Below, piece by piece: positions 6,057 to 50,524 of a DNA stretch of 64,000 nucleotides; position 1 is the stretch's first letter, and every line of letters begins with the position of its first letter. A program made the translations under genes and the position numbers. Below the pieces are notes generated by a model. The model was not told the DNA's origin. It did not search any database and worked only from the letters and a program-made list of their open reading frames with translations. The stretch is from contig CAWDSQ010000022.1 of NCBI GenBank assembly GCA_963804955.1, forward strand, positions 64,001 through 128,000. Direction: 5' to 3'. The DNA comes from an uncultured delta proteobacterium (GTDB taxonomy: Bacteria; Desulfobacterota; WTBG01; CAIYCZ01; CAIRTM01).

Positions 6057-6140
6057 GAATTCCATAGGCCGGGTACGGTATCATGAATGCTATAGGGCGG
6101 TTTCATGGCACAGGTAAAAATCGGAGACAGGAGAAACACC

Positions 6141-7495: not shown

Positions 7496-7576
7496 GATTC
7501 ATTGAACAGGCATAAAATAGCGGCGCGGCGAATCATTCAAGCTCTGCAGGGCAGAATTTAACGATAGGCACGATGC

Positions 7577-8932: not shown

Positions 8933-9002
8933 AAACACGGAGTGCTGAACAAATTCAGTCTGCATGGATCACTACGCAGAGCTCATGTTAAGGAGATGTA
9001 CT

Positions 9003-10326: not shown

Positions 10327-10360
10327 ATATTTGTTCACGGTTTTGTTTCAGGAGGCATGT

Positions 10361-10828: not shown

Positions 10829-10836
10829 TTTTATTG

Positions 10837-10859
10837 AAATTTATACTTTTTATAAATTT
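10837..10859. promoter_or_regulatory. AT-rich inverted repeat, candidate operator
   Basis: AAATTTATA-ctttt-TATAAATTT between marR2 and the next gene. Confidence 0.35.
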
Positions 10860-10889
10860 TACCCTGATTCAAGAAAGGAGATCTATGCA

Positions 10890-24815: not shown

Positions 24816-24869
24816 GAGCTCTGGGTAACCGAACGGCATAACCTGCAACCGTGCAGAGGAGGACAAGCA

Positions 24870-25049
24870 TTGATAAAGATAGATAAAGAGAAATGCTCCG
24901 GGTGCTGCGGGTGCGTTGATCACTGCCCGGTGGCAGCAATTAATGTAATCGATGATGTGGTGGTAGTGGATAATGATCTGTGCATGGAATGCCTGATCTG
25001 CACGAAGGTCTGTCCGTTGCGGGCGCCGCAGGAGACGGTGGAGGCATAA
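24870..25049 (+). CDS. 2[4Fe-4S] ferredoxin, 59 aa (not in the ORF track)
   Basis: TTG start after GGAGGA; MIKIDKEKCSGCCGCVDHCP...CMECLICTKVCP. Confidence 0.85.
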   Translation: MIKIDKEKCSGCCGCVDHCPVAAINVIDDVVVVDNDLCMECLICTKVCPLRAPQETVEA

Positions 25050-25086
25050 ACAGCAAACAGGAACACATATACCATAAGGGAGTACA

Positions 25087-28721: not shown

Positions 28722-29475
28722 ATGCTTAAACTAACTATAGATGGAAAAAATATTCAGACGGAAAAAGGGACCACCATTCTTACAGGCGGCAAAAGCTAAC
28801 GGGATTGCTATCCCGACCCTGTGCCATCATGAAGGGCTGAGCCCCCTGGCCAACTGCAGGCTGTGCGTGGTTGAGGTAACCCAGAACAACAGGACGCGGG
28901 TGGTCACCTCCTGCAATTACCAGGTGCAGGAAGGGATGCAGGTGGCGACCCAAACCGGGCGGATTGTCTCCATGCGAAAGACAATCATAAAGCTGATCAT
29001 GGGCAGATCGCCGAATGTGAAGATTGTCAGGGACCTGGCCGCTGCCATGGGGATTGAAAAGACACCGTTCACGCTGGAAAACGATAAGTGCATCCTGTGC
29101 GGTTTATGCGAGCATGTGTGCAGCGAGTATATCGGCGCCCATGCAATAACGTTCACGGGTCACGGGACCGGAAAATTTGTTTCAGCGCCCTTCAGCGTAT
29201 CCTCCAGGGACTGCATCGCCTGCGGAGCCTGTGTTGAGGTGTGCCCCGCCAGGTGCATTGCCATGAAGGATGTTGAAGATGCCAAGACCTATTATTGGGC
29301 TGAGTCTGAGACGGTAGGGCCGGCACGGGTTGTGTACAACTGGAATGCGCGGGTTGCGTGGAAGAAGTGCTCGAAGTGCGGAAACGCTTTTCCTCCGCCG
29401 TCGGTACTGCCGTACCTGGACAAGGGCGAAGCCCTGCCGAAGAAATTTTTTGATATCTGCCAGAAGTGTAAGTAA
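28722..29475 (+). CDS. NuoG-N/HydA-N-like Fe-S subunit (module 2), indel near 28770
   Basis: MLKLTIDGK..., IPTLC..NCRLCVVE..TSC, CILCGLCEHVC, CIACGACVEVCP, terminal CxxC pairs. Confidence 0.85.
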
Positions 29476-29516
29476 AAAACATCCATAACCTGCAACCGTG
29501 CAGAGGAGGACAAGCA

Positions 29517-29696
29517 TTGATAAAGATAGATAAAGAGAAATGCTCCGGGTGCTGCGGGTGCGTTGATCACTGCCCGGTGGCAGCAATTAATGTAATCGAT
29601 GATGTGGTGGTTGTGGATAATGATCTGTGCATGGAATGCCTTATCTGCACGAAGGTCTGTCCGTTGCGGGCGCCGCAGGAGACGGTGGAGGCATAA
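29517..29696 (+). CDS. 2[4Fe-4S] ferredoxin (duplicate)
   Basis: Same protein as 24870..25049, with only synonymous changes. Confidence 0.85.
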   Translation: MIKIDKEKCSGCCGCVDHCPVAAINVIDDVVVVDNDLCMECLICTKVCPLRAPQETVEA

Positions 29697-29733
29697 ACAG
29701 CAAACAGGAACACATATACCATAAGGGAGTACA

Positions 29734-31063
29734 ATGGCAGAATTATATGATGTGATAATTGTAGGAGCCGGTCCAGCGGGAGCCATGGCTGCAAAGATCG
29801 CCGGGGAGAACGGTCTGAAGGCCGCCATAATCGAGCGCAAGACCGATATCAGCGCGATCCGCAGGATCTGTACCATGATCGTGAATGTAGATGAGGAGAA
29901 CGTGGGAGATATCCTCACGTACAGCCACAAGACAAAACGGTTTATATTTCCGCACAATGGCTTTTCCTTTAAATATGACGGGCCCACGCGCAACGTGTAC
30001 GGGTTTCATATAATAACCCCCGGGGGCCTGCAGGTTGAGATGGGCAATATTGCCCGTGGGAAGGCTGAGGGAAATGTTGTGGGTCTGATGATCCACAAGG
30101 GGCATATGTGCCAGGGGCTGGTGAATGAAGCACAGCAGTACGGCGTTGAAGTGTTTACCAACAGCAATATCAACAGCGTGAGGAAAGAGGCCGGGTATGT
30201 GGCGCTGCTGGACAACCGGGGCAATGAGTACCGGGGTAAATTCGTTATAGCGGCGGACGGGGTAAATTCACGGATTGCGCGGCTGCTGGGGCTGGACAAG
30301 GAGCGGGTGTTCATCGGGACGTACCTGGATATGGCGCGGACCTATGAAGGCTATGAGATTCCCGATGAAGAAAGACTGATGTTTGGCCTGGGGTGGCCAA
30401 CGGGCATATCGCTGGCGCCGGAAATGACCCCGGGTCATCTGCATGTGGCGGCGACGAGCTATAATTACGAAAACGATCTTGACGCGCAGATAGAGAAATT
30501 TGTAACCACGGGCACGTATGCCAAGTGGTTTAAGAAGGCGCGGGAGGTTGGGCACCGGACAAGCTGCGTGTCAAATATTGCAACCCCCATTATTATGCCG
30601 TTTAAGGATAATGTGCTGGTGGCGGGGGACTCGTCGTGGATGCAGGAGACGGGGATCAACGGAGCGCTTATGCCGGGATGGAGCGCAGCCAATGCGGTAA
30701 CCGAGGCGATTTTGAAGAATGAAATCAATAAAAACGGAATAGCGAGCTATCTGGCCTGGTATGACAAGTTCTGGTACCAGCCCTTCGGGAAACGGATGGC
30801 AAGCAGCGGTGGCGCGGACATGAAGGATTATCTGTCAGGGGAGGATATTGACTATCTGGCGGGTCTTGTTGAGGAGCCGATGCCGGCCACCATGAACTTT
30901 TTTACAATTATGAAGCAGATCGGGACGACGTTTGCAGCACTTGCTGCCGCGGATACAGGATGAGCGGCCCGACATCATGCAGAAGCTGCTGGGGTACCGG
31001 TCGCATCCGCGGGCGCTGGCCCTGGCAAAACGCCGCAACGAAGGCTGCGCTATCGTGGCTTAA
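29734..31063 (+). CDS. GGR/FixC-like FAD oxidoreductase (paralog 8, duplicate of 7), indel near 30940
   Basis: ORF 29734..30963 plus a shifted C-terminus ending CAIVA*. Confidence 0.85.
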
Positions 31064-31134
31064 GCTCGCTAAAATTCAATAGTAACAGAGCAGTGCAGGC
31101 ACAACACAGTATGTTACGCAGGGAGAGTTTTGAA

Positions 31135-32104
31135 ATGGCAAATCAGCTGTATGCAGACATAGCAAAACATACGCAGGGAAAGCATATTATGCTGGTAGGT
31201 TCTTCCGGTAATATCGGCGGGAAAGCCCTTTCAATACTTTTGCAATACGGGAAAGCCGCATCAATCACCGCCTTTGATAAAAGAGCGCCGAAAATAAAGG
31301 AACTTCCCGAATCGGTTAAAGTATGCAGCGGAGATCAGGGTGATATTACCAGTGCTGATGCGGTTGAAGCGGCGATGCAGGGCAATACGGTGGTCGTCTG
31401 CGCCATAGGCGTCCCCCGTTATTTAGCGCCGGGTGAGAAAAAGCTGACCCCTGATGAAATAGAGCGGCAGGGCATGCTGCATATTGTTGATGCGGCAAAA
31501 AAGACAGGGGTGCATCAGATTGTCTATATAAGCGCCCTGGGGGTTGCCCGGGGCGATAAGATTCCTGCATTTCATCTGGCGCACACAGCTAAAAGGCAGG
31601 CTGAGGATATGCTGAAAAAGTCTGGAATCGCCTATACGATTCTTCGGCCGTCAGGATATTATTTTGACTTTCGCGAGCTGCTGGCAGCGGCGGTTGCCGG
31701 AAGATATCATGTGGTTGATGAAGGTCTGGCGCGCGTTCAGCCGATTCATCATGAGGATATGGCCGATATTCTTATCGCATCAATCAACAACAAAAAAGTG
31801 GAGAAACAAGGTCATTGCCGTGGGCGGCCCTGAAATATTCTCCTATGCTGAGCTGGGTAAGGTGTTCGGTAGCGTGCTGCAGACCGAGGTTAATGTAATT
31901 CATTTAGCGCCTGAAAAGTACAAAAAAGAATATTTTAACAGTGATCTTATCCTGTTCAGAGCCACTTCGGATAGTATTCTGACCAAAGAAGAACTGAGCG
32001 CCCTGCTTGGCATATATCCGGGCCTTGAGCTTAAAAGACTGGAGGATTATCTCAATAATCCGAATGATCCTATGCTGAAGTCGTTTTTAAAAAAAACCAC
32101 CTGA
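31135..32104 (+). CDS. Atypical SDR/NmrA-like NAD(P)H-binding protein, indel near 31800
   Basis: LVGSSGNIG, YISALG, AKRQAE, YTILRPSGY, VGGPE; paralog of 23366. Confidence 0.82.
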
Positions 32105-36345: not shown

Positions 36346-36385
36346 TATGGATCGCCGGGGACTCGAACCCCAAACCTACTGATTA
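36346..36385 (-). repeat. att site: duplicated 3' half of tRNA-Lys (distal island boundary)
   Basis: 40 bp identical to 50450..50489 (TATGGATCGCCGGGGACTCGAACCCCAAACCTACTGATTA). Confidence 0.93.
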
Positions 36386-36903
36386 CGTATCACCGTTTTG
36401 CCCTCAATACGAGACTCAATTTATAGCATGTGAGGTTTGGTAATCTGGAAATTTTGGGATTTTTATTTGTCCAACCTAAAAGCCGTAATGTGGAGTTTTT
36501 GGTTGGCGGTAAATATAACAAGATATTATTATAAATAGCATTCAGAGACAGGAGTCACAGACTTTTTTTACTGTAAAACCTGTATTATCTGCGATTGCTG
36601 CTGTAGGGTCTGATTCAATCCTTTTGTATAAGTGAGGGATGTCCAGAGAGGAGAAGGGGGGGGCAAAACCCCTCTGGACGCGGTGACCCTCACGTACCTT
36701 ATTTTTAAATATCATTTTTCTAGAATGACCACTACTGCCTTCCGTTATCGGTTGGTACCGCCACTCCTCTATGCACGTGTTGCCTATGGCAGTCAATTTG
36801 TTTCTGCTGGATGTTTTTGAAAATACTCTCTATTTTTTGATTTTCATTCAAACGGGACTGGCATCCTTTCTTCGATGCCGGTTCTGCCTCGCTGCTGCGG
36901 CAT

Positions 36904-38724
36904 TTACAGCGACTTCAGTTTTGTCATCACCGTTTCCACGATGCTGTCTTTGAAAAGGGTATACGCCTCCTGTATCAGTGGGGATTGCCCCTCTTTTTCA
37001 TACCTGCCCAGCAGCGAGCCTGTTATGATGATCCGGGCACCCCGAAAGTCAAAATCGCTTCTGTAGTTGTGCGCTATCTCATGGCCTCCATGGAACTCGT
37101 GCTCGTCAATGCCGTCGACCTCAAATGCCCAGTGCCGCAGATGCTCAAAAAGATCTATCGTTTCATTGGTAAAATAGTAGGGCTGAAAGATGATGACGTC
37201 AAAGCCGCGGTGCAGGTAGTCGACCATGCACTCCATCGAGGACACATGCCAGGAATCGGGATGATTGTTGAACTCGTTCATCCCGAAGCAGAACTCGGTA
37301 ACCCCGGCCCTGAGCTTCGGAAGGTCCCGCTCATACACGAGGCGCATATTCTGCCGTACTCGCGCCATGTTCAGGTCGATAACATCGTCCTCCTCGTTGC
37401 CCGGCGGGAAGCCGTGCTCGCCCAGGATGATGCCCACCTTTGCCGTGTCAGGAATGCCGCAGGACTGGATCTCGTGTTGAGTAATCCTGAAGGCCGCTTC
37501 GGCAAAGGCGGGATTGGTTCCCATTAGGTCCCCCTGCGTCGTGTAGAGGATTGACAGCGGCAGCCGCTTGCCGGTTTCCTGCTCTGCCAGATCAATGGCC
37601 TCCTGCGCGTCTTCCCACATGCCCTTGGTATCTTCAAAATCGTTAAGGTCTGATATGAAATCGCAGAGGATCACTCCCGTAATGTTGTTTTCTGCAATTT
37701 GCTTCTTGATGATTTCCTTAAGGTGCGAGGGCTTTTCCCCCACGAGCAGGGAATGTACCTCCCAGGGAAGCTGCGCGCCATGCTGCTTCAGGCCGTCCAT
37801 GATATCGTTGAAAATAATCCGGGTCTGGTCCCATGCCCGCATGCCGCCCAGAGGCTCAAAATGCCAGTAGTTGCTGATTATATGGGTGGCAAAAACTTCA
37901 TAAATATCGGGTATGTCATTGGGCAGCCCCATCTCCGGGATATGATATCCGCGCAGCACCGTACCGAGCTTGGTCTTGGTTTTTTCCATCCACAGGGTGG
38001 CATCGATCATCTCGGAATAGGTTTTGCCGTCGCAGCCCGGGCCGGTTTCGTGGCCCTGGACGTCGACAAGCTTGTTGGGTGTATATTCTTCAAGACCCTT
38101 GTGAAGCTGCGTCGGGTCGATGAGGGCGGTCAGCATGTCCACTTCTTTTAAAAAATCGGGGATATACCCGTAGTGCATCAAATGGTTCATAATGTTTTTT
38201 GAAAACGTAAACGCGGCATCGAACATGGCCGGCGTCCACTCGCCCCGGGTATTTTCAATCTTGGGCTCAAAAACACCGGCAAAGAGGAGAAGGGGCTTTG
38301 AGGTGTCAAATGTCCCGTTTTCAGCGATCACATTGGTATAGAAGGACGCCAGCACCGCGTCGTCCTGGCCCTCACTGGTGCCGATGGCCTTTGCGGCTAT
38401 TTTTATGAGCCGTTGGCTGGCATGGGATGTGTCAAACTGCACAACGCACGGGGGGGTGTCAAATTCAAACTGTCTGCCGTCAATGGTCAAGACGATCTTC
38501 TTCAGGTTCTTTTCCAGGTCTTCATTACCCTCCCGTATGCGCAGCTCAACTTCCATCATCCCGCTTACCCGTGAAGCGCTTACCGGCTTTACCAGTTGCA
38601 GAGGGTTGGGCTTCCAAATGATCAGGGGCGCTATGACGCCGGGGTGTTTTCCAATGATTTCGGGGATCCGCGAAGTCTGGGTATTGTAGCTTTCGCTGGC
38701 GACATTGACTTTTCTTTCGTACAT
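36904..38724 (-). CDS. Hypothetical protein: Ig-like N-terminal domain plus possible class II chelatase (ferrochelatase)-like domain
   Basis: 606-aa intact ORF; IILGEHGFP and IIFQPYYFTNETIDLFE resemble the ferrochelatase FSAHxxP and PxxFxxDxxETLxE motifs. Confidence 0.5.
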   Translation of the reverse strand: MYERKVNVASESYNTQTSRIPEIIGKHPGVIAPLIIWKPNPLQLVKPVSASRVSGMMEVELRIREGNEDLEKNLKKIVLTIDGRQFEFDTPPCVVQFDTSHASQRLIKIAAKAIGTSEGQDDAVLASFYTNVIAENGTFDTSKPLLLFAGVFEPKIENTRGEWTPAMFDAAFTFSKNIMNHLMHYGYIPDFLKEVDMLTALIDPTQLHKGLEEYTPNKLVDVQGHETGPGCDGKTYSEMIDATLWMEKTKTKLGTVLRGYHIPEMGLPNDIPDIYEVFATHIISNYWHFEPLGGMRAWDQTRIIFNDIMDGLKQHGAQLPWEVHSLLVGEKPSHLKEIIKKQIAENNITGVILCDFISDLNDFEDTKGMWEDAQEAIDLAEQETGKRLPLSILYTTQGDLMGTNPAFAEAAFRITQHEIQSCGIPDTAKVGIILGEHGFPPGNEEDDVIDLNMARVRQNMRLVYERDLPKLRAGVTEFCFGMNEFNNHPDSWHVSSMECMVDYLHRGFDVIIFQPYYFTNETIDLFEHLRHWAFEVDGIDEHEFHGGHEIAHNYRSDFDFRGARIIITGSLLGRYEKEGQSPLIQEAYTLFKDSIVETVMTKLKSL

Positions 38725-38812
38725 AAGCAGCTCCTCAAACTTGGGTTAATGGTTTAAAAACAGCCCCCTGCATTCAAAAAAGCACAGCCCGTGACGACCT
38801 GCATGCAACGGC

Positions 38813-39037
38813 CTATGCCGCCGTCGGCTCCTTGACAAGCGTCACATCGAACTTGCCCAGAGATTGCACCTTGCGCAGCTTATAGCCGTTGACAAGCATG
38901 GCATAAAAAGCGAACCGGTTCTTCTTCGGCCGCGTAATCATCCCCAGGGCGAGCTTGTCATCGCATACATGGATTTCATCGGCTTTCTGCACTATCGCCC
39001 GTATAAGGTCCTGTTTTGTTTTTACTTGCGTTATCAT
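38813..39037 (-). CDS. Small hypothetical protein
   Basis: 74 aa, AAGGAG RBS, operon position. Confidence 0.65.
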   Translation of the reverse strand: MITQVKTKQDLIRAIVQKADEIHVCDDKLALGMITRPKKNRFAFYAMLVNGYKLRKVQSLGKFDVTLVKEPTAA

Positions 39038-39049
39038 AGGCTTTCTCCT

Positions 39050-39784
39050 TTATTTCATAAAGGTGCTGTCTGAAGAGTCTGACAGGGGATTGTGCGGCAG
39101 CCCTCGCAGCGCGAGCTGTCCGGCCAGCACATCTGCAAACCCGTTTGCGGCAGTCGCAATGTCCTCAGGGGTTTTTTCCTGTGTCGCTACATGGTGATGC
39201 GCTATGACACGGGCGCCTGCGTTGACAACAATCTGCTGCATCCCTGTTTTTTTGCCCCGAATGTAGTCCCTGAAGAAACGCTTCAAATACGGGGCATCTT
39301 CACCATACTGTGAATACTTGTTAACCTCGGTATTGCCGGTTGTGACAACCGCGACGCTTTTTCCGTTAAACCCTCCCTGGCGTATCAGCGTGCGGATGGG
39401 AACGCTCAGCTTCCAGTTCCAAATGGGGGAGACGAGAATGATAGCGTCATGGCCGGCGAGATCGGGGCGGGCAGGTTCAATAACGGTGCCCCTGTCGAAA
39501 AAGGAATCAAATCCGGCACTCATATACCCGAGAGTGCCTGACCGGTCCCTGGCATCTTTGATTTCAAGGACGTCGGCATCGATATGTTTTCTGATCGTAT
39601 CGACAATAAGCCGGCAGTGGCCCGTGCGGGAATAATAGATAATCAGGGGTTTGTCCGGGCCGGCCGGTTCCGCTGCCAGGCCGGCAGGACAGAATATGCT
39701 GCAAATCAGAAGCAAAGCGCCGCATAAGCCGACAGCCTTTGCCGCAGCGCAAAAAACAGTTGTGTATGGTACCGTATGCTTCAT
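39050..39784 (-). CDS. Exported flavodoxin-like protein
   Basis: Signal peptide; IYYSRTGHC, LVSPIWNW; paralog of 2074..2733. Confidence 0.78.
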   Translation of the reverse strand: MKHTVPYTTVFCAAAKAVGLCGALLLICSIFCPAGLAAEPAGPDKPLIIYYSRTGHCRLIVDTIRKHIDADVLEIKDARDRSGTLGYMSAGFDSFFDRGTVIEPARPDLAGHDAIILVSPIWNWKLSVPIRTLIRQGGFNGKSVAVVTTGNTEVNKYSQYGEDAPYLKRFFRDYIRGKKTGMQQIVVNAGARVIAHHHVATQEKTPEDIATAANGFADVLAGQLALRGLPHNPLSDSSDSTFMK

Positions 39785-39954
39785 TGCTGTGCCCTCCTTG
39801 TATATGTCTGCGGAGTGCGGGAGTCATCATGCTGATGGCTTTGTCCGCGAGTTTTATCCCTGCATGCAGGGCCCGCAGTGCGCACCGTTCATGCTGTGCG
39901 CAGCAGATGTCTCAAATAATATGTAGGGAAACAACAGCTTTCAGGAGGGCGCTA

Positions 39955-40278
39955 TCATAGCTGAAGTTTGATGTTTGCAAGCGGGGGGGCTTTAATTATT
40001 TTGGGCTCTTCGTAGACACGGCACAGCAGGTGTGCTGATTCCGCGGCGACAGTATTTCCGCTGATAGCAAGCTCTGCCATGGTATGGGGCATTTTGTCAT
40101 GTGCATCCCTGTGGTTTTTCTGGTCCAGGCTTATTATTCTGCTGCTGATCGCGCTGTACTCAAAGACTCCTGCAGTCACCTCATAAGAATGAGGGCACAT
40201 GGTGAGATACACCAAACCTATTACCAGAAGCCATCCGTGGTGTTTTGAATGCAGTTGCATGCGATGTATGACCATCAC
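39955..40278 (-). CDS. Hypothetical protein
   Basis: 107-aa ORF just downstream of a consensus promoter; no recognisable motif. Confidence 0.4.
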   Translation of the reverse strand: MMVIHRMQLHSKHHGWLLVIGLVYLTMCPHSYEVTAGVFEYSAISSRIISLDQKNHRDAHDKMPHTMAELAISGNTVAAESAHLLCRVYEEPKIIKAPPLANIKLQL

Positions 40279-40301
40279 GTATTATTTGATATTCTAACTA
40301 A

Positions 40302-40329
40302 ATTATAAACGTTCCTTTTTTCTTGTCAA
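40302..40329 (-). promoter_or_regulatory. Consensus sigma70 promoter
   Basis: Minus strand TTGACA-N16-TATAAT; the spacer contains a homopolymer. Confidence 0.7.
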
Positions 40330-40833
40330 GAGACTTTTAAAAAAGTGGGCCGAATTTTGAAATATATCGACTGCAACATACCATACATACTTAAATCATG
40401 TTGTTTCTCACCAACCAGGTCGGCTAGCTGCAGTAACGCAAGAAACTTTCACTTTTGCGTGCCAGTTTTTGAATTATGCTCATTAAAAGTTTAACATTAC
40501 CACCAATTACGCAAGTTAAGGCCTGCTTTATCTTTACGGCATTAACTTGTATTTTATCGAATTTTGCAAGAAGCACACAATCAATATTGTCCAAAATACG
40601 AGATCGCCGCGCTTCGCTCGCGGGCAACTGACCCCGTGCTGCGCTTCGGGTTTGGTCCTGCAAAGAACTTGTTGCCTCAAAAGCCCTGCATCCGTCAATG
40701 ACACTCTATCAGGCTTTTTACCCAATGAAAGTTCCTTAGGAGGAGCCTTGGCGACGAAGCAATCTCAGCTGAAAAACAAAAGTAAAAACAGCTTCAAAAA
40801 CCCTAATTTGAATAGAAATGGCACACATTCGTA

Positions 40834-42285
40834 CTATGTCTGAGAAGTTGATGCGGTATGCGGAAACAAAAGGGTGACAGTGGTGCCTTGCAGGGGTTCG
40901 CTTTTTATATCTATCGTACCTCCGTGCAGATCCATGATGGACTTGACGATGGCCAGGCCCAGACCCGATCCTGTCGCGTCCAGCGTGCGTGCGGATTCGG
41001 CCCGGAAAAAGCGGTTGAAGATATTGGGGATGTCGTCGGGGTGTATGCCGATGCCCGTGTCGGAAACGGTAATGACGGCATTGTTATGGGGGCCCTGTAC
41101 GATGCTGATATCAACCGAGCCACCGTCGGTAGTGTAGCGCAGGGCGTTTGACAGAACATTGCTGAGCGCCCGGCGAAACAGCAGCGGATCGGCATGGAGA
41201 GCGGCCTTTCCGCTGATAGTGAGGCTGATATTGTTTTCCTGGAACAGTTCGACAAAATAGTCGGCAACGGTGCGCACTTCTACGTCACCGTCGAGCAGCG
41301 AGGGTTCGACCTTTATATCCGTGCTTTCGGCTTTTGCCAAAAACAGCAGGCTGTCTATAATATGCCCCAAACGCGTAAATTCCTCGAGGCTCGACTCAAT
41401 ATTCTGCTGATACTGAAGCTGTGTTCTTGGCTTGGCAAGCATCACTTCAGCCTCCCCGATGAGATTGTTTATGGGCGTGCGCAGCTCATGGGCAAGATCA
41501 GCTGAGTAGTGCGACAGCCGGGAAAAGGCATCCTGCAGCCGGTCAAGCATGTCGTCAAATGACGTTGCCAGCACGGTCAGTTCCCGCGGCCACTGATCGG
41601 GATTCACCCGCGCGGTCATCTGTGTTGCTCTGATCCGCTGGATTACCGAAGTGATGCGCGCCAGGGGGCGCATGGCTCTTCGAGCCAGCACCATGCCTGC
41701 AGCCGCTGATATGAAAATGCTTATCAGCAGGATGCCCTCGGCCATGAAGCGGTATCTGCGCACAATGCCGGCTTCGCGGGAGACGTCAAGGGCCGCCTGA
41801 ATGAGATACCGGTTATCACGCCCCGCCCGTGTCGACAGAAGCAGGTATGCCCGGTCGTTGGAGAGCCTTTTATTAATGATGACCGGCTTGGTTTCCGTAT
41901 CGGCGGCAATGCCTTCAAAAACAGCATGAGGAGGGCTTTCTCCGGTACTGCTAGTCTGGGCATATAGCCTGCCCGAGCTGTCAAGCACATGAATATGATA
42001 TTTCACAAACTGCAGATCCGAGCCTTTTTGAATTTCGTTTTCCACCCTTTCCCGCTCGACCGTATCGCTGTTAAGAATCGCCTGCAGCTGTTCGACTTTT
42101 TCCGTAAGGAAAAGCGTATCTTCTTCCTCAAGGCTTTTAAGCAGGGCATAGTAAAGTGCGCTGATGGTAACGGCAAGAAGAGCAAACGTAATAAGCGTAT
42201 AGGTTACTGTCAGGCGGTGGGTTATTGATATGGAGGACCGGGAGGCCCAGCGGGAGGGCTTAGTCGTTGCGCTGTTCCAGGACAT
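40834..42285 (-). CDS. Heavy-metal sensor histidine kinase (CusS/CzcS-like)
   Basis: 2 TM segments, HAMP ([16 protein letters not shown]), [23 protein letters not shown]. Confidence 0.88.
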
Positions 42286-42938
42286 AGCCGACTCCGCGAA
42301 TGGTGTGAATGAGCTTAACCGGGAAGGGATCATCAATTTTTGCCCTGATGCGGCGTATGACAACGTCAACGACATGCGTGTTGCTGTCGAAGTTTATATC
42401 CCAGATATGCTCGGCGATCATGGTCCGCGAAAGCACCTGGCCCGCACGCTCGGGCAAGCAGGCTCAGCAGCGAAAATTCCTTCTGCGTGAGTTCAACGGA
42501 CTGGCCGGCGCGCGTGACCCTGTGCGACAGCAGGTCGATTTCAAGGTCTGCAATGACGATCCGGTCCTGCTGCTGCACGGGGCCGCGCCGCCTGATGACA
42601 TGAATGCGGGCCAGCAGCTCGGAGAAAGCAAAGGGCTTTATCAAATAGTCATCGGCGCCGAGATGGAGCCCCTTAACCCGGTCCTCAACCCTGTCGCGCG
42701 CCGTAAGAAATATGACGGGAGTCTGCTTTTTCTTTTTTCTGAACTCGGTGATAAGCGTCAACCCGTCCATGCCCGGCAGCATGATATCAAGAATCACCAG
42801 ATCGTAATCTATGCCCAAAGCCATGCTGAGCCCGTCGCGGCCGTTGTGAACGGTGTCCACGACAAAGCCGTTTTCGGTCAGGCCACGCTTCAGGTACTGG
42901 GCTGTTTTTATTTCATCTTCAACAACAAGAATGCGCAT
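42260..42938 (-). CDS. Heavy-metal response regulator (CusR/CzcR-like), indel near 42450
   Basis: [52 protein letters not shown]. Confidence 0.88.
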
Positions 42939-43330
42939 GATAGAAAGCTCGGCAATGCATTGAAACTTCCCCGGCAGACCGGTGCTTCGGCCCGGCCAAC
43001 CGGCGCGTTTAATCGCAGCGAAAAAGCAGGGCATCAAACGGTTTATCTCGCATTAGACATACCAGCCGCATATATCAGTTTCATCACAAAACCATTAAAA
43101 ACTAAAAATTTCGGCCTTCCGCACAACGCTGCCGCTATCCTGCAGCGCCGGGGGGCGCATGTCCGTCCGGAATTTTTTAACTTTTTAATGTTCATGAAAC
43201 ACAACTGTGATTTTCAGGCCGTACTATATTCATATAGTCCTATTTTTTTCGGCCATTTCAAGGCAATCTCCTGCCGTGACGGCTGCGCAAGAATACACGG
43301 CCAACCGAACACCCACAACAGGAGGTTTCC

Positions 43331-44076
43331 ATGAAACGAACCTTTCTCATCGGCCTGTCCGGCCTGGGCTATTTTATCGTTTCGCTGTTTCTGTTCATGC
43401 CGTTTCGCATGAAGCCCATAGAAAATTACAACCTCTTTGCGCTTCCCTTTTTCGCCGCAGTCTTTCTTTTTCTGCTGTACAAGGCCTGCACCGTCGAAAA
43501 AGACAGCAGGGGATACCTGTTCGGCTATTTTGCCGGCATTGTCATGTGGCAGCTTTTCGGCGAAACAGCCTCCCTGACCGTGCCGTCGGGGCTGATCCTG
43601 CAGTTCAGCGACATGAACATCAAGGTGCTGGGCGGCTATTTCTATGTGCTGGCGGGATGGGGCGCTGCTGTACATGCTCTGGAAGCTCAAAATGCTCAAC
43701 AGCCGCGCAGCCTATGTGTTCGTGATTTTTCTGGGTATCTGGTCCTTTGAAGTCTACATGGACAATTACTCCTCCCGGGTGCCCCTGTTCATGATGGGCA
43801 TTGTGGCCAATATCATCATGGTGGTGTTTCCTGATCGCAAGCATCGTGGTGCTGGTCATGGCAAAGCGCTCGGCCTCCATCGAGCGCAAAACCATACTGG
43901 GCGGCGTTTTCTATTTAACGCTCAATATCGTACTCATGTCGTCGGGCCAGTGGAAAAAGCCCCAGGACTTCTACCTAAAGTATGAAGTGCCCGCGCTTCA
44001 GCAGGAATTGACGGAAGCGCAGGAGAAGCTTGACTATATCCAGCGCCTGAAGCTGCAAATGATTTATATGCCCTAA
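43331..44076 (+). CDS. Polytopic membrane protein, indels near 43665 and 43830
   Basis: GGAGG RBS; hydrophobic segments across ORFs 43331, 43644 and 43801. Confidence 0.7.
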
Positions 44077-44112
44077 ACCAGTGTTTCAACACGCATTGTG
44101 AAAGGAGCCGTT

Positions 44113-45249
44113 TATGAAACAGTCAGTTTAAAAATCATGCTTGCATTACTGGCGCTGGCCTCAGTGTGCCTGCAGCCCGCGCTCTGCCGGGCCGAGGCGA
44201 AAAAGGGCCTGCTGGTCTATGACTCTATCTACAGCTCGACCGCTGAGGTCGCCTACTGGCTCAAGGCCATTATCGGCAATGAGCAGCAGCTGGATGTTAA
44301 AAAAATAGATCAGGTGCTAACGGTTAAGCCCTATGACTATGTCATCATCGGCAGCTACTCGAAATGGGAAAAGCCTTCGCCGCGGATTTACAAATTTATC
44401 GAATTCTGGAAAGATGAGCTGGCGAAAAAACAGGTGTGTTACTTTCTGACCGGCGGCGACTGGGATGAGACAATGCTGCTGAAAGCGCCGGGCGCCCCGA
44501 TCAAGCTCATTGCGGGAAGAAATTACCTGTTTGATCTGAAAGAAAAGTACCCGAACATCAAGCCGGTTCTCATGGGCGGCTTCGGCGGCCGGCAGGTACA
44601 GCCCACGTTGCAGGGTACCGACGGTTTCATGATCTGGGTGCTCGAAAAGCTGTCGCGCGAAGGCGCGCACTGGGTCGGCATCGATATCTGGGAGTCGCTG
44701 GTGCCCGAGCGCGTCGAAGTGTTCGGCAATGAGGTGCGCACAAAAATTCTGGGGCTTGAGCCCCTTGCCGACGTGCAGAAATACCGCGGGTTCTGGAACT
44801 CGCTGCAGCCCGCATCGCTTAAGGATCCCTCTAAAGTAAAAACTACGAATCTTATTTCAAAAGACAACGGCGAGACCTGGGTGCCGGTATCGGAGCGGCC
44901 CTATACCGTGAAGCTCAGCTCCAAAAAATCCTACTATTCGCGCTCGAGGATCAAGGCCGATCTACCCGCAACCGCCAGGCTTCTTGCCGAGTGGGCAGGC
45001 AAGAACGGCTTTGAGCTGAAGAAGGAACGTGAGGCCGACTACATGACCTGGTTTACTGCCATGAAAAAAGGCGGGGACAAAGAAGAGACCCTCTCTATCG
45101 TTATGGCCACCATGCCTGATGACCCGGGCAATGTTCATGTTTCATTCCGCTCCTGGCTCAAGCCCGAAAAGCGCGCGGCGCTTGAAGACTCGGCAGCCAA
45201 GGCAGAGCAGCTGCTCTGGGCCGATGGCCGGAAGGTTGCGGGCAGATAA
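44113..45249 (+). CDS. Exported protein with HemG-type flavodoxin domain and C-terminal extension
   Basis: Signal peptide; LLVYDSIYSSTAEVA, YDYVIIGS, MGGFGG; exact start uncertain. Confidence 0.65.
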   Translation, partial: YETVSLKIMLALLALASVCLQPALCRAEAKKGLLVYDSIYSSTAEVAYWLKAIIGNEQQLDVKKIDQVLTVKPYDYVIIGSYSKWEKPSPRIYKFIEFWKDELAKKQVCYFLTGGDWDETMLLKAPGAPIKLIAGRNYLFDLKEKYPNIKPVLMGGFGGRQVQPTLQGTDGFMIWVLEKLSREGAHWVGIDIWESLVPERVEVFGNEVRTKILGLEPLADVQKYRGFWNSLQPASLKDPSKVKTTNLISKDNGETWVPVSERPYTVKLSSKKSYYSRSRIKADLPATARLLAEWAGKNGFELKKEREADYMTWFTAMKKGGDKEETLSIVMATMPDDPGNVHVSFRSWLKPEKRAALEDSAAKAEQLLWADGRKVAGR

Positions 45250-45311
45250 CACGGCTGCAAATCGTTTTGAAACGGCATGTGCCAATAACGCAGTTACAGG
45301 GAGTACACACC

Positions 45312-45585
45312 ATGAAATGTCCGATATGTGACATAGATCTTCAGATTGCAGAACGGCAGGGCGTTGAAATCGACTACTGCTCCAAGTGCCGCGGCGTGTG
45401 GCTGGACAGGGGCGAGCTTGACAAGATCATCGAGCGCTCGGCAGCTGAATTGCAGCCGAACGCAGCCTGCCCCGGGGCAGGGGTATCCGAACACCGGCTA
45501 CTATGACAAACATCATGACAGCCATCACGGCGATCCGCATCATTACAAGCGGCGAAAAAGTTTTCTTGAGCAGCTGTTCGACTAA
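45312..45585 (+). CDS. zf-TFIIB-like zinc-ribbon protein, indel near 45460
   Basis: MKCPIC..ERQGVEIDYCSKCRGVWLDRGELDKII...KRRKSFLEQLFD. Confidence 0.85.
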
Positions 45586-45653
45586 ACATCAGCGGCTGCG
45601 GCAGCATGCAAACTGCCTAAATAAAATCATCGCAGATGTTTCAAGCGGGGCAG

Positions 45654-45675
45654 GCCCGGCATTGTGCCGGGTCTT
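45654..45675 (+). terminator. GC-rich hairpin, possible terminator
   Basis: GGCCCGGCA-ttg-TGCCGGGTC. Confidence 0.4.
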
Positions 45676-45745
45676 CGCGTTCGCGGCATACTGTTTTTAG
45701 CACATGCCCGATCGAATGGGCGCAACGGTTGTTTCGGTAATCGGC

Positions 45746-46436
45746 ATGAAAATTTTTTTTTAAAATCCTGCTTGATGCTGCTCTTATTGCATCGGGCTGC
45801 TTTCTAGTTTTTTATTATGATTTGCCGAGCCTCTTCAGCAGTGAAGAAAAAGTGCTTCAAGCGATCGAGGCGTTGGGCCCGTTATCTATTCTTGCGTTCA
45901 TGCTCCTGCAGATTCTGCAGGTCATCATCACTCCCATTCCCGGCGAGGTGACCGGGCTTATCGGCGGGTATCTGTATGGCCCGATGCTCGGCACTGTTTA
46001 CTCAACCATCGGTCTTACCTTCGGTTCATTGATTGCTTTCAGCCTTGCGCGGGCGTACGGACTTCCGTGTGTCGAAAAAATTATTTCCCCGTCTGCACTC
46101 AGAAGGTATGATGGTTTTATTGAAACAAAGGGCATGCTTCTCTGCTTTTTATTTTTTATCATTCCTGGAGCCCCCAAGGATATTATGTGCTACGTGATAG
46201 GTCTAAGCCGCATGCCGATAACAATTTTTCTGGTGCTCTCCACATCAGGCAGGCTGCTGGGCACCATTCTGCTCTCGGCAGCCGGGAGCAGCCTTCGTAA
46301 TCATCGGCATGACACGCTGATTATTATTGCAGGAGCTGCCGGCGTGTTTGCGCTGACGGCATATGTCTATAACTATTATAAAAATTCAGTCGTCCTCAAC
46401 AACAAGAAATGCAGTTTTTTGAAAGGAGAGCAATAA
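45746..46436 (+). CDS. TVP38/TMEM64 (DedA/VTT) family membrane protein
   Basis: LQVIITPIPGEV, GGYLYG, FIIPGAPKD; start shifted in a T-homopolymer. Confidence 0.85.
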
Positions 46437-46439
46437 CCC

Positions 46440-47336
46440 ATGAAGAAAGCATTTAAAATCGCCGGCGCAGTCATTGGTGCTTTTATTGTCATTGCCGTCA
46501 TATTTATTGCGGCCTACAAACCGGCGCAATATTCAGACTTCAATATCTATGCAAAACTGCGCAGCTTTACGATAGACCTGCTTCAGGAGTATAAGGCAAC
46601 CGAGCGCCCAATCACGCAGGAATTTAAAAATTTTTCTCTGGACCTGTCGTTTCCCTACAATAAACTTTTTGGCGACAGCGCTCTGGGCGTCCCCCTGGTC
46701 TCCTATGAGAGCAGCCGGATAACAGCCGCCAGCATCAGCCAGTTTGAAGTGCCCCCCCAATCCGGCTACTACCGGGACTTCACTTTTAACCTGCGACCGA
46801 ACTTTGCCTGCAGGGCGCCGGTGTTTCACATTGATTTCATGAAGCCGTCTCCGGGACTGCCCGGCCTGTGCAGCATGGATTTTTTCAACGTCGATCCCGA
46901 GCAAATCAGTCTAGAGGCATTCCTGGGCACGGAGCTGGAGACGGTGAAAAAGGCCATGGCACTGGTTGAAAAATATCAGCGCACGGCGGCCGAGGGCAGA
47001 GGCAAGATAACGGCATATCTTGATCCCTGGAAATCAAAATATCGCATGGAGCTGCAGGAGCCGCAAACAACAGATGAAAAGGTTCGCCAGCAATATTATG
47101 AGACCGTGGCGGAAGCCTATAAGCTGGCATTGTCGGCTTATATGAAGCGCCTGTACAGCCTTCAACCTGATCCGGGCTATGCAAAACAGCATGAAGAAAA
47201 GACTCGGGTATTTGTCCAGGCGCTCTATGACAAGGATTTTGCCGTAAACATGGGCAGAAAAATATTCAAAGACAGCTTTAAAAAATACTGGCTGGACGGG
47301 TTCTGGACAGTGTCTATATCCATGCAGGAAAAATGA
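46440..47336 (+). CDS. Membrane-anchored protein resembling ferredoxin-dependent bilin reductases (PcyA/PebA/RCCR fold)
   Basis: N-terminal TM segment; FNLRPNFACRAPVFHIDFM...CSMDFF and DKDFAVNMGRKIF..YWLDGFW align by eye with FDBR motifs. Confidence 0.5.
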   Translation: MKKAFKIAGAVIGAFIVIAVIFIAAYKPAQYSDFNIYAKLRSFTIDLLQEYKATERPITQEFKNFSLDLSFPYNKLFGDSALGVPLVSYESSRITAASISQFEVPPQSGYYRDFTFNLRPNFACRAPVFHIDFMKPSPGLPGLCSMDFFNVDPEQISLEAFLGTELETVKKAMALVEKYQRTAAEGRGKITAYLDPWKSKYRMELQEPQTTDEKVRQQYYETVAEAYKLALSAYMKRLYSLQPDPGYAKQHEEKTRVFVQALYDKDFAVNMGRKIFKDSFKKYWLDGFWTVSISMQEK

Positions 47337-47488
47337 AATTGAAATATAATGACGAGCTGGCGTTTTTCATTGCCGGCCCTTCGGCCTGGAGGGTCGGCAT
47401 ACGTACTGACTGTTTCGGTGCTTCTGCCGGGAGCAGCAGGAATCAGTTAGTTGTTGCCCTTTGCTCAGCATGAAGGTATTAGGTCCTC

Positions 47489-48397
47489 ATGAACCGTTCC
47501 GCTCTCACCCGCTATGCATGGCTGTCAATTGCGGCAGCAGTTGCGACCATGGCGCTCAAAGCAGCTGCCTACTGGCTGACCGGATCTGTCGGCCTGCTCT
47601 CGGATGCCGTAGAATCAATAGTCAACCTGCTTGGCGCTGTGATAGCCCTTGTCGTGTTGACGATTGCAGCGCGCCCGCCGGATGACGACCATGCTTACGG
47701 ACATGGCAAGGCTGAATATTTCGCCAGCGGTGCTGAAGGAACTCTGATTCTGATTGCTGCCATAAGCATCGCCATGGCAGCGGCCAACCGCCTCATCCAT
47801 CCCCAGCCCATCGAACAGGCCGGCGCCGGCCTTGCGGTATCAACTTTTGCTTCACTGATAAACTTCGTTGTCGCGCGCATCCTGCTGCGTGCCGGAAAGC
47901 AGCACCGATCCATCACCCTTGAGGCTGACGCGCGGCATCTTATGACCGATGTCTGGACCTCTGCAGGCGTGATCGGTGGCATCATTGCCGTGACGCTTAC
48001 GGGCTGGCAGATACTTGATCCGCTTATCGCCCTGGGCGTTGCCGTCAATATCGTCTGGTCGGGCTATTATCTTATCAAACGCTCCACTATGGGGCTTATG
48101 GATTCGGCTTTGCCGCCGGAAGAGCTCGCTGAAGTTGCGCGAATTCTTGAAAAATACGCGCAGCAGGGCCTGCAGTACCATGCCCTGCGCACCCGGCAGG
48201 CCGCCTCCCGCCGCTTCGTATCGGTGCATGTGCTGGTGCCCGGCTTCTGGACGGTCGATGCGGGCCACGATCTGCTGGAGCATTTGGAGGCCGATATTCG
48301 AGCAGCCCTGCCGGAGGTAACGATAACTACCCACCTTGAGCCGCTTGAAGATCCCACGTCACAGCAGGACAAGGAACTCGACCGCCCGTCAGTCTGA
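47489..48397 (+). CDS. Cation diffusion facilitator (FieF-like)
   Basis: [41 protein letters not shown]. Confidence 0.92.
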
Positions 48398-48716
48398 ATC
48401 GGCAGCAAATGATAATCCTCCGTTAAAAGAACGGGGGGCAGCCATCACGGCAGCATTGCTAAATGAAATTTTACAAATGCAGAAGGTTGGATATCTCATC
48501 GTTTCATGGCATAATTAGATATATTGCCACCATGTTCAGCTTTAATAATAATTCATAGCTGTCCAGTAGTGGCTTTATTAAACAAAGGTATGACCTGTTC
48601 CACCAACTTAACCGGAAAGACGAAAGTACGATCATTCTTGTAGCACTCGGACCCGGGGTGTCACAGCATGCCACGGGAATAATCCATATCAGCAATGACA
48701 TGCCTCTGGGAGGCGC

Positions 48717-50105
48717 ATGATGAAATTGCACAGGATACTGCGCACTGTCCGCACGGCCCTGCGGGCGCTGAGGCACAACCCGATGCGGGCCGCTTTAACG
48801 GCCCTCGGGATTATTATCGGCGTGGCAGCAGTGATCGTCATGATGGAAATCGGCAAGGGTTCATCGGCAGCCATCCAGCGGACCATCGCCAGCATGGGCG
48901 CCAACAACCTGCTGGTTCATCCGGGCGCGGCGGCAAGCGGCGGGGTGAGCTTCGGCGGCGGCAGCGGCATGAACCTCACCCCTGAGGACTGCGACGCCAT
49001 TATTCGTGAATGCCCGGCAGTTGGCAGCGTTACTTTCGAGGTGCAGGCCCGCGCGCAGATTACCTATGGCAACCGCAACTGGGTTCCCCTGGCAATCAAC
49101 GGCACTACTCCTTCCTATCTTGATGTCCGCAACTGGAACAATCTGGCAGAGGGCGAAATGTTCACGGACCGCGATGTTCGCAACGGCAGCAAGGTGTGCG
49201 TGCTCGGGCAGACGATCGTGCGGGAGCTTTTTCAAGGTGCGTCGCCCATCGGCAGGGAAGTGCGGGTGAAGAATGTCTCTTTCAAGGTGATCGGCGTACT
49301 CAGTGCCAAGGGGGCAAATATGATGGGAAGGGATCAGGATGATATACTGCTTGCGCCCTGGACAACAATCAAGCACCGGGTGACCGGCTCATCTGCGGCC
49401 ACAGTAAACCAGAGCAACTCCTCGTCGGACTCGTCCTCCTCGGGAGTGAACTCGCTTTCCAAACTGTATCCCAATGCCCGGCTTAACCTCTATCCGGTGC
49501 CGTCGGCGACTCAGCAGGCCAACACGCCTTTGCCTGTACGCTTTGCCAATGTCGATCATATTCTGATCTCCGTCCGGGAAGCTCAGGATATCCCCCTGGC
49601 AATGCGGCAAATAAACGAACTGCTCCGGGAGCGCCACCGCCTTCAGCCGCATGAGCCCGATGATTTCAATATTCGCGATATGACCGAAATGAGCAAAACC
49701 CTCTCGTCAACATCAGTCCTGATGACCAATCTGCTGCTGAGCGTTGCCCTGATTTCACTGGTTGTGGGCGGGGTGGGAATCATGAACATTATGCTGGTAT
49801 CCGTGACGGAGCGCACCCGTGAGATCGGGCTGCGGATGGCGGTCGGGGCACGGGCCCGTGACATCATGCGCCAATTTCTGGTGGAGGCCGTTGCCCTGTG
49901 CCTGGCCGGCGGCGCTATCGGAATCTTGCTCGGCTGCGGCAGCTCCTGCCTGGTGACTCTTCTGTTGAGCTGGCCCACAAAGACTTCGCTGCCTGCTATA
50001 GTGACCTCAGTTATAGTTTCCGTGGGCGTGGGCATAGTTTTCGGGTTCTATCCGGCATGGAAGGCTTCACGTCTTGATCCGATCGAGGCACTGCGCTACG
50101 AATGA
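48717..50105 (+). CDS. MacB/FtsX-like ABC transporter permease (no ATPase domain)
   Basis: LTALGIIIGVAAV, VGGVGIMNIMLVSVTERTREIGLRMAVGA, PAWKASRLDPIEALRYE. Confidence 0.92.
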   Translation: MMKLHRILRTVRTALRALRHNPMRAALTALGIIIGVAAVIVMMEIGKGSSAAIQRTIASMGANNLLVHPGAAASGGVSFGGGSGMNLTPEDCDAIIRECPAVGSVTFEVQARAQITYGNRNWVPLAINGTTPSYLDVRNWNNLAEGEMFTDRDVRNGSKVCVLGQTIVRELFQGASPIGREVRVKNVSFKVIGVLSAKGANMMGRDQDDILLAPWTTIKHRVTGSSAATVNQSNSSSDSSSSGVNSLSKLYPNARLNLYPVPSATQQANTPLPVRFANVDHILISVREAQDIPLAMRQINELLRERHRLQPHEPDDFNIRDMTEMSKTLSSTSVLMTNLLLSVALISLVVGGVGIMNIMLVSVTERTREIGLRMAVGARARDIMRQFLVEAVALCLAGGAIGILLGCGSSCLVTLLLSWPTKTSLPAIVTSVIVSVGVGIVFGFYPAWKASRLDPIEALRYE

Positions 50106-50208
50106 ACATACCGGCAAGCCGGGCCTGATCTAGCCCCCTCCTCCTGCATGCACATCTTGTTGATGAGCCCGGCCTCAGTCCTGTATTAGGGAAATAGGTT
50201 GAAATTGT

Positions 50209-50427
50209 TTCCATGCGCTGCGGCATTTTGGTGCTTCGGTGCTGGATAATGCTCATGTGAATATCGGCTCAATCCAGCGAATACTCAGGCATTAAAACAG
50301 AACGACAACTGAAATTTACCTGCATTCGATCGGCGAGTCGGAGCGTTAAGCGATGCGGGTATATGAGCGGGAATTGGAAAAGTCACACACTAATTCACAC
50401 ACAGAAACAAAAGAGGCTAGCGCCTGA
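50209..50427 (+). pseudogene. Tyrosine integrase C-terminal remnant
   Basis: Manual translation FHALRHFGASVLDNAHVNIGSIQRILRH*NRTTTEIYLHSIGESER*AMRVYERELEK... shows HxxR, LGH-like and catalytic Y motifs with two in-frame TAA. Confidence 0.85.
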
Positions 50428-50442
50428 AACGCTAACCTCTTG
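50409..50442 (-). terminator. Hairpin/terminator downstream of tRNA-Lys
   Basis: AAGAGGCTAGCG-cctgaaa-CGCTAACCTCTT with a T-run on the minus strand. Confidence 0.6.
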
Positions 50443-50451
50443 AATTTACTA

Positions 50452-50524
<73 letters not shown>

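Follow-up and report, generated by a model that had tools for sequence, protein, structure and literature searches.

In the main text of PMC10151467, the bilin-reductase fold is listed only for the ferredoxin-dependent bilin reductases (FDBRs), RCCR and CPOX, the known enzymes of this fold are described as oxygen-dependent, and the fold is proposed to postdate oxygenic photosynthesis. Sequences of Ca. Schekmanbacteria are placed there in an RCCR-related outgroup; neither 'Desulfo' nor 'Deltaproteobacteria' appears in this main text, and the supplementary tree may hold members of the lineage studied here in the outgroup. According to the available text of PMC13446030, in which neither 'flavodoxin' nor 'periplasm' is mentioned, FDBR variants can bind porphyrins, and among the class II chelatases IhtB has been described as a putative reverse ferrochelatase (available text of PMC12094164). 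Here we analyzed a stretch of 64,000 nucleotides (the window) from an uncultured delta proteobacterium, which is part of contig C22 (CAWDSQ010000022.1) of genome G000 (4.26 Mb, 87% complete). A segment of ~14.1 kb within the window (36346-50489), the island, encodes a protein with a predicted ferrochelatase fold (P0001), a putatively exported flavodoxin (P0002) and a putatively membrane-anchored protein with a predicted bilin-reductase fold (P0003), which a preliminary description had combined into one extracytoplasmic system. All three open reading frames are present as described, and our analysis revealed that three modules make up the island as a patchwork, each from gene families that have multiplied in one uncultured class of the sulfate-reducer phylum.

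Bilin-reductase-fold proteins and exported flavodoxins

P0003 (46440..47336, + strand, 298 amino acids) is encoded between dedA and the gene of a CDF transporter. Its predicted structure (predicted local distance difference test, pLDDT, 93.8) matched PebB, HY2, PcyA, PebA and RCCR in Foldseek (E 6.6e-8), and structure comparison gave Z-scores of 22.1-19.8 (for Z 22.1, root-mean-square deviation, rmsd, 2.9 with 235 aligned residues), 17.5 for HemF/CPOX and at most 5.1 for unrelated folds. The earlier guess of a bilin reductase, made by eye, was therefore right with respect to the fold, which is the alpha/beta/alpha sandwich of FDBRs, RCCR and HemF (Z 22.1). In Pfam no family was found for P0003 at E <= 0.5 and the gathering score of PF05996 was not reached, and neither the protein nor its alignment gave a significant match by sequence in the PDB. 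A link to PF05996 was obtained only by profile-profile comparison with nine PF05996-type paralogues (probability 96.6) and by an ESM Atlas score of 0.90. The fold assignments of P0003 and also of P0001 were given by the predicted structures only, since sequence searches did not yield them.

Using a two-step alignment, in which P0003 was compared with the nine PF05996-type paralogues and one of these paralogues was then placed by its PDB alignments, Asp132 falls on the position of PcyA Asp105 and Asp266 on the KDP aspartate of PebB, PebA and HY2, which we take to be catalytic in bilin reductases. Both residues are invariant in 105 homologues. An N-terminal hydrophobic anchor is present in all 30 evaluable members of the P0003 family (of 31) and corresponds to a helix of residues 2-25 in the model, and P0003 is thus predicted not to be a soluble enzyme of the ferredoxin compartment. 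The named relatives of P0003 belong to metagenome-assembled genomes of uncultured Deltaproteobacteria/Thermodesulfobacteriota. One bilin-reductase-fold protein of G000 carries a fused N-terminal ferredoxin-like domain and is followed by a second reductase gene (L072:8599-9585, corresponding to G000:C20:76598-77584).

P0002 is a long flavodoxin of 383 amino acids (44098..45249, + strand) with a predicted signal peptide, a flavodoxin domain and an additional C-terminal region; its likely start is the ATG at 44114, which follows a GGAG resembling a ribosome-binding site and is out of frame. Residues 38-185 match Pfam Flavodoxin_5 over the cut-off (E 1.4e-9), and the phosphate loop for flavin mononucleotide (FMN) is conserved across the family. 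The name HemG-type flavodoxin, under which this protein had been introduced, holds only for the domain: the HemG equivalog model NF008316 gave 17.8 bits at a cut-off of 142, and an identity with HemG was rejected. A search of the PDB with the long-flavodoxin profile returned only weak flavodoxin matches (best E 0.07) and no fold for the C-terminal half. As 39 of the 43 evaluable family members (52 in total) have a hydrophobic N-terminus, P0002 and P0003 are the two proteins of the trio with export or anchor signals, in agreement with the preliminary description.

To describe the neighborhood of the long flavodoxins, we counted 57 of their genes in 30 genomes, leaving out the copy in the window, and 54 of them had enough flanking sequence. 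A reductase-fold gene lies directly downstream in 26 of the 54 cases and directly upstream in 3 more, and this adjacency was seen in 4 families, covering 16 of 18 genera and 24 of the 30 genomes. A membrane anchor was recognized in each of the 25 downstream partners that could be scored. In a set of 25 other genes of the PF05996 type it was recognized in 4, and for 9 of this set the N-terminus was too short for scoring or for an anchor. The usual order is a GGR-like flavoprotein, the long flavodoxin and the anchored reductase, beside YCF48 and MMPL genes. Since the pairing is conserved, ferredoxin is a cytoplasmic electron carrier and one soluble paralogue is fused to a ferredoxin-like domain, these data suggest that the exported flavodoxin may act as electron donor for the anchored bilin-reductase-fold enzymes.

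The chelatase-fold protein and the make-up of the island

P0001 (36904..38724, - strand, 606 amino acids) had been taken for a class II chelatase, and the predicted structure (pLDDT 87.7) indeed shows the two-domain chelatase fold behind an N-terminal Ig/FnIII-like domain (~residues 40-138): the comparison with ferrochelatases resulted in a Foldseek E-value of 3e-7 and a VIA Z-score of 20.6 (rmsd 3.1, 315 aligned residues). No Pfam match was found and the gathering score of PF00762 was not reached; in two scanned paralogues PF00762 was once over the cut-off (32.5 vs 27) and once just below it (26.3). P0001 and its alignment gave nothing significant by sequence in the PDB and no usable match in the ESM Atlas. 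In an alignment with six HemH sequences, His437 occupies the position of their invariant His, and it is kept in 40 of 40 orthologues. Glu521 is likewise invariant in the 40 sequences and pairs with the HemH Glu only if a 3-column gap is allowed; in the ungapped alignment Asp524 sits at this position.

An export of the chelatase was rejected, because a hydrophobic N-terminus is present in 0 of 40 aligned orthologues, and P0001 is predicted to be cytoplasmic, even though several of its paralogues in G000 do carry a hydrophobic N-terminus. It is encoded on the opposite strand to P0002 and P0003 and in a separate block (block A), together with a short flavodoxin (39050..39784, - strand; Flavodoxin_5, E 2.1e-6) and a 107-amino-acid protein without Pfam match (39955..40278, - strand). 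The short flavodoxin, which is absent from the preliminary list, is the usual neighbor of chelatase orthologues and appears to be exported, with a hydrophobic N-terminus in 16 of 16 scored family members after the exclusion of 4 entries without the anchor motif. It travels with the 107-amino-acid protein, and the order of both is kept in G006, G007, G014, G019 and G020. Within 4 kb of 15 other chelatase-orthologue loci we found the short flavodoxin 8 times, a GGR-like gene 4 times, a long flavodoxin once and a reductase gene never; in G020 a reductase gene is located ~9 kb from the chelatase orthologue. In the same genome (G020:C40, L047-L050) a ~12 kb inverted duplication contains reductase, nitroreductase, short flavodoxin, MarR, membrane protein and chelatase genes. 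Among the paralogues of P0001 in G000, an exported ferrochelatase-fold protein closes an operon with, by eye, CusR-, heavy-metal RND- and P-II-like genes (L076:1449-9310, G000:C5:181448-189309), and another paralogue at L002 is followed by feoB- and dtxR-like reading frames (by eye).

The trio is not a conserved operon, and this possibility was rejected. In G006, a genome of the same genus with 89-92% DNA identity, block A is located ~95 kb from block B, which consists of cusSR, a membrane protein gene, the long flavodoxin, a zinc-ribbon gene, dedA and the CDF gene, and in G005, G006 and G007 no P0003 gene occupies the position between dedA and the CDF gene. Around 25 loci centered on P0003 orthologues, many of them on short contigs, neither a long flavodoxin nor a P0001 orthologue was found. 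Partial combinations exist in G003, in which block B, the CDF gene and a P0003 orthologue lie within ~10 kb, in G035, in which the chelatase is 3 kb from a long flavodoxin, and in G008, in which a long flavodoxin directly precedes a P0003 orthologue as the sole such case for this family. All three genes together were found at no other examined locus. The idea of a single self-contained extracytoplasmic system could therefore not be upheld, as the chelatase is predicted to be cytoplasmic, the blocks are apart in relatives and the metal-related genes occur only with the flavodoxin block. An atypical short-chain dehydrogenase/reductase (SDR) of the NAD_binding_10 family, to which ChuY and biliverdin reductase B belong as well, directly follows P0003 orthologues at 4 of the 25 loci and chelatase orthologues at 2 of 15, and two such genes are present in the window (23394-23972 and 31093-32104).

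The metal-related genes and dedA named in the preliminary description are well assigned: the CusS/SilS-type heavy-metal sensor kinase (40834..42375, - strand) passes TIGR01386 (376.9 bits, cut-off 292.55), the CDF cation-efflux transporter (47489..48397, + strand) matches Cation_efflux (E 5.9e-44) and the DedA/VTT membrane protein (45746..46436, + strand, 5' end frame-shifted) matches VTT (E 4.3e-20). The CusR-type response regulator (42366..43037, - strand) remains under the cut-off of TIGR01387 (226.3 vs 279.2 bits) because it is truncated by a frameshift near 42454. Two further genes of the block encode a membrane protein without Pfam family (43331..44076, + strand), which is split into three frames here and intact in G006 and which in relatives directly precedes the long flavodoxin or the chelatase, and a small CxxC...CxxC zinc-ribbon protein (45312..45585, + strand), frame-shifted near 45461 as seen from a gap relative to G006. 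The shifts of 1-2 bases in the cusR-like, membrane protein, zinc-ribbon and dedA genes relative to the intact genes of G006 are probably assembly errors, since hemB is split likewise. High-scoring CusS, CDF or DedA proteins were found at 6 other loci, all of them long-flavodoxin loci of the genera g1 and g2, and at 0 of 15 other chelatase-orthologue loci. These genes are a genus-level accessory cassette, and a core role was rejected because they are seen only with the flavodoxin block of two genera.

The island is bounded by a 40-bp repeat of the 3' end of tRNA-Lys(CTT): the tRNA gene itself (50452..50524, - strand, ARAGORN) forms the right boundary, and an att-like exact copy (36346..36385, - strand; blastn 40/40 to 50450-50489) the left one. 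The GC content of 0.523 is not unlike that of the genome (0.524). No integrase was detected among the reading frames scanned with Pfam or the small gap reading frames read by eye, a dedicated integrase search not being part of this. An element of 60-150 bp beside the left boundary (36384-36555) recurs seven times elsewhere in the genome with 73-82% identity; it was considered as an integrase remnant and dropped, as 0 of the 7 other copies lie within 3 kb of a tRNA. As a further passenger the island contains a lone MacB-like ABC permease (48717..50105, + strand; MacB_PCD, FtsX) without adjacent partner genes in the list of reading frames. In a comparison covering four runs, the gene arrangement in the window proved real, as a bridging contig of run X2 spans dedA and P0003 with 21 letter differences over ~1350. 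In a contig of run X4, in contrast, position 40388 is joined to 46853, without block B and half of P0003.

Distribution across the class and possible functions

Matches to PF05996 are present in 32 of the 42 genomes of the class with 6-22 copies each, the P0002 family in 30 and the P0003 family in 29; the P0001 profile matches in 23 genomes, 18 of which hold orthologues (15 near full-length, 3 partial). Of these 18 genomes, 15 also contain both other families. Thus the tetrapyrrole theme of the preliminary description stands on the two points on which it had staked itself, the fold searches and the co-occurrence. All four profiles and families are missing from the families f3 and f5 (0/9), in which one canonical ferrochelatase was found in 8 of 9 genomes (E 2e-61 or better), and the other 33 genomes of the class have divergent ferrochelatases only (best E 1.2e-19). 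An AhbD-like gene is present in 8 of the 9 genomes of f3 and f5 compared with 9 of the 33 in the expanded families, and hemB is kept in 35 of 42. The three profiles searched in 117 other genomes of the phylum sample (PF05996, long flavodoxin and P0001) gave no match there. Completeness is 90% or more in 21 of the 42 genomes of the class, and haem oxygenase (PF01126) was detected in 0 of the 42, in a search that was positive in 3 of 14 controls. As related genomes are not independent, this distribution is one lineage-level pattern.

In G000 we identified 15 bilin-reductase-fold loci, 12 loci matching two flavodoxin profiles and 6 to 10 chelatase-fold loci, four of the latter on weak evidence. 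With the window locus included, a reductase gene is located at a distance of at most 10 kb from 6 of the 12 flavodoxin genes (0.75 expected) and from 3 of 6 chelatase genes (0.38 expected). About 19 GGR-like and ~20 aldehyde-oxidoreductase loci were counted in one genome. G000 also has HemF-family (PF01218) matches over the cut-off at C5:239680, C5:13264 and C15:20595-21357; HemE, canonical HemH and dsrA were not found in this 87% complete assembly. Reading frames resembling an acetyl-CoA synthase/corrinoid cluster by eye (L005, G000:C32:11000-21000) are consistent with an anaerobe. Window positions 4-11765 and the upstream region G000:C22:59500-64000 (L078) form an operon-like run of the toolkit without a reductase gene, with MMPL, DUF1302, DUF1329 and YCF48 genes, an exported short flavodoxin (2074-2733), five GGR-like flavoproteins, two MarR regulators and a membrane protein. 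Elsewhere in the window the start of a GGR-like gene and its upstream region are near-identically duplicated ~4.6 kb apart (24753-25818 and 29292-30963). In G012 of family f1, the chelatase-orthologue operon (L053, G012:C138:1-18000) comprises MMPL, YCF48, three GGR-like, PNPOx-like, HemD- and FrhB-family genes; relatives of FrhB include chlorophyll-modifying reductases.

The reading that we favor, and that we trust about as much as we doubt it, is that these families serve an oxygen-free processing of scavenged pigments of the haem, chlorophyll or bilin type and that the island assembles three of their modules. Every related structure returned for the models acts on tetrapyrroles. It is possible that the sets of DUF1302, DUF1329, YCF48 and MMPL genes beside many of the paralogues bring the pigment into the envelope, where a periplasmic FMN flavodoxin of the P0002 type would replace ferredoxin and feed electrons to the membrane-anchored bilin-reductase-fold enzymes, with P0003 as a plausible, not usual, recipient. 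The anchored enzymes might reduce a methine bridge or a side chain by means of their two acidic residues, and ferrochelatase-fold proteins would bind the macrocycle and remove or exchange the metal, with P0001 active in the cytoplasm and its exported paralogues outside. The final steps would take place inside with soluble reductase paralogues, GGR-like flavoproteins and tungsten aldehyde oxidoreductases. With regard to ring opening, either the substrates arrive open, as phycobilins, phyllobilins or bile pigments, or the reduction would weaken the ring. A more far-reaching version, which we regard as doubtful and put forward tentatively, assumes that the class feeds on dead haem, chlorophyll and bilins through a reversal of the reactions by which haem and bilins are made, with chelatase-fold proteins stripping the metal and flavodoxin-driven anchored reductases using the pigment as electron acceptor, which would weaken the ring without oxygen or radical SAM enzymes.

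Several findings weigh against a pigment-processing role or against parts of it. The identity of the P0001 and P0003 models to solved structures is just 9-15%, the profile alignment of P0001 with HemH is weak (probability 74%, E 2.7e-5), and the periplasmic location is predicted from hydrophobicity alone. In a quickly computed tree of reductase-fold proteins, a chosen subset of 38 rows, the anchored partners of the long flavodoxins form one clade, so that the pairing counts as one inherited event and not as 26; this clade keeps the Asp105-type residue without the second aspartate, and P0003 is placed in a different clade. The neighbors of P0003 orthologues are more often an aldehyde oxidoreductase (5 of the 25 loci) or an SDR (4). 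G012, which is 95% complete and the one f1-family genome without a bilin-reductase match, has a chelatase orthologue and no match to PF05996, P0002 or P0003. Furthermore, none of the known enzymes for opening the ring without oxygen was found in the 87% complete G000: HutW is below the cut-off (152.8 vs 400), and no CobN/HmuS family was detected. A search for SGR-type Mg-dechelatases had no match in any control genome and is uninformative.

An alternative that we consider unlikely is a salvage of cofactors, in which imported porphyrins are rebuilt into haem or another cofactor, P0001 acts as a forward chelatase in place of missing terminal enzymes, and the HemF-fold and HemG-like proteins modify the side chains and set the redox state. 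Classical haem synthesis ends with the steps of the HemF fold, HemG and HemH, to which the three folds correspond. The scarcity of AhbD-like genes in the 33 expanded-family genomes and their lack of canonical HemH, the retained hemB, the three HemF-family loci of G000 and the cytoplasmic, single-copy appearance of P0001 would all fit, and FetB, which is class II chelatase-like, inserts metals (available text of PMC13065792). However, the number of reductase paralogues and of GGR-like and aldehyde-oxidoreductase loci in one genome would exceed the need for a cofactor, HemE has no match in G000, and a P0001 orthologue is present in only 18 of the 33 genomes. Rather unlikely in our view is also that the folds were repurposed for another hydrophobic substrate, for example an isoprenoid, steroid or heteroaromatic compound imported by the MMPL/DUF1329 systems. 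The very low identity to known enzymes and the loss of the Asp105-type residue in many soluble bilin-reductase paralogues are in line with this assumption, as is the neighborhood of GGR-like flavoproteins, aldehyde oxidoreductases, SDRs and MMPL proteins, which are general genes for hydrophobic substrates. A single repurposing does not explain, however, why two unrelated tetrapyrrole-specific folds and HemF-like proteins expand together with retained active-site residues, and the HemD-family gene in the chelatase operon of G012 speaks against it as well.

We regard it as very unlikely that the island works as one extracytoplasmic system whose chelatase frees a metal that is then handled by CusRS and the CDF transporter, as had been proposed in the preliminary description. 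All of its genes do lie within 11 kb between att-like repeats, G003 and G035 have partial combinations, and chelatase paralogues of G000 are found beside a heavy-metal efflux-like operon and feoB/dtxR-like reading frames (by eye); against this stand the separation of the blocks in G006, the empty P0003 slot in three relatives, the X4 contig, the chelatase without export signal and the lack of the complete trio at the other loci examined. Scarcely credible, finally, is a synthesis of phytobilin-like pigments or chromophores for sensing or protection after the manner of pre-PcyA clusters. Working FDBRs do exist in non-photosynthetic bacteria (main text of PMC10151467, available text of PMC13446030), but pre-PcyA clusters carry the haem oxygenase that was found in none of the 42 genomes, and the number of paralogues and the link to transporters would better fit catabolism.

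Relation to known systems

We found no description of this system in the open-access literature, and the lineage-wide toolkit with its two-protein core is apparently unpublished. The island itself is of lesser weight and shows that these modules move from one locus to another. The presence of 6-22 copies of the fold per genome in a class without detected haem oxygenase does not agree with the oxygen-dependent origin drawn in the main text of PMC10151467, and the exported flavodoxin with its anchored reductase is a two-protein system open to direct expression and assay. If the substrates are remains of chlorophyll or haem, candidate genes would become available for the turnover of pigments in sediments without oxygen, a process whose enzymes we did not find described in the open-access literature. 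If the periplasmic version with reversed synthesis chemistry is true, the bilin-reductase fold would gain its first member that is periplasmic and fed by a flavodoxin, and anoxic sediments a biological pigment sink. It would also challenge the exclusively oxygen-dependent origin of the fold as published in that main text.

Oxygen-free processing of tetrapyrroles by anaerobes is likewise known from the radical SAM system ChuW/ChuY (main text of PMC10151467) and the dechelatase HmuS (PMC12583661). P0002 scores 14 bits against the BilS model with its cut-off of 155. BilS is the flavodoxin with which the bilirubin reductase BilR works in anaerobic bilin handling, and to our knowledge none of ChuW/ChuY, HmuS and BilR/BilS uses the bilin-reductase fold. 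With Escherichia coli HemG (NP_418292.1) P0002 shares Flavodoxin_5, and the profile of its family matches HemG residues 2-85 (E 1.2e-7, one target); the pairwise E-value is 0.11, and P0002 differs in length (383 vs 181 amino acids), in its signal peptide and ~190 extra C-terminal residues and in the pairing of its family with a reductase gene.

The fold of P0001 is shared with HemH/CpfC (1L8X, 9KTA), SirB, CbiK and FetB/IhtB (9B86) at Z-scores of 20.6, 19.1, 15.1 and 13.7-13.8, as are the conserved His and probably the Glu of class II chelatases. P0001 is twice as long, has an Ig-like domain and long insertions and is only 13-14% identical, and in contrast to the exported, haem-binding FetB/IhtB of Porphyromonas gingivalis and to its own exported paralogues it has no lipoprotein signal. 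FetB and IhtB are precedents for exported class II chelatases in either direction, the former for metal insertion and the latter, putatively, for the reverse. P0003 resembles the FDBRs HY2 (6KME), PcyA (2G18), PebB (6QWQ), PebA (2X9O) and PebS (2VCK) as well as RCCR (2ZXK) in fold (Z 17-22), and like the FDBRs it is acidic at the PcyA Asp105 and KDP positions. It differs from FDBRs and RCCR by an identity of only 10-12%, the N-terminal membrane anchor and the many paralogues per genome, from PcyA by Thr at the His88 and Asp at the Ile86 position, and from FDBR pathways by the upstream haem oxygenase, of which none was found in the 42 class genomes. The pre-PcyA clusters of heterotrophs likewise place FDBR-like genes in non-photosynthetic bacteria, but contain haem oxygenase and globins and are oxygen-dependent (main text of PMC10151467). 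Taken together, the parts of the toolkit resemble FDBRs and RCCR, class II chelatases and flavodoxins, and because they miss the family cut-offs or the defining context, they are filed as members of none of them.

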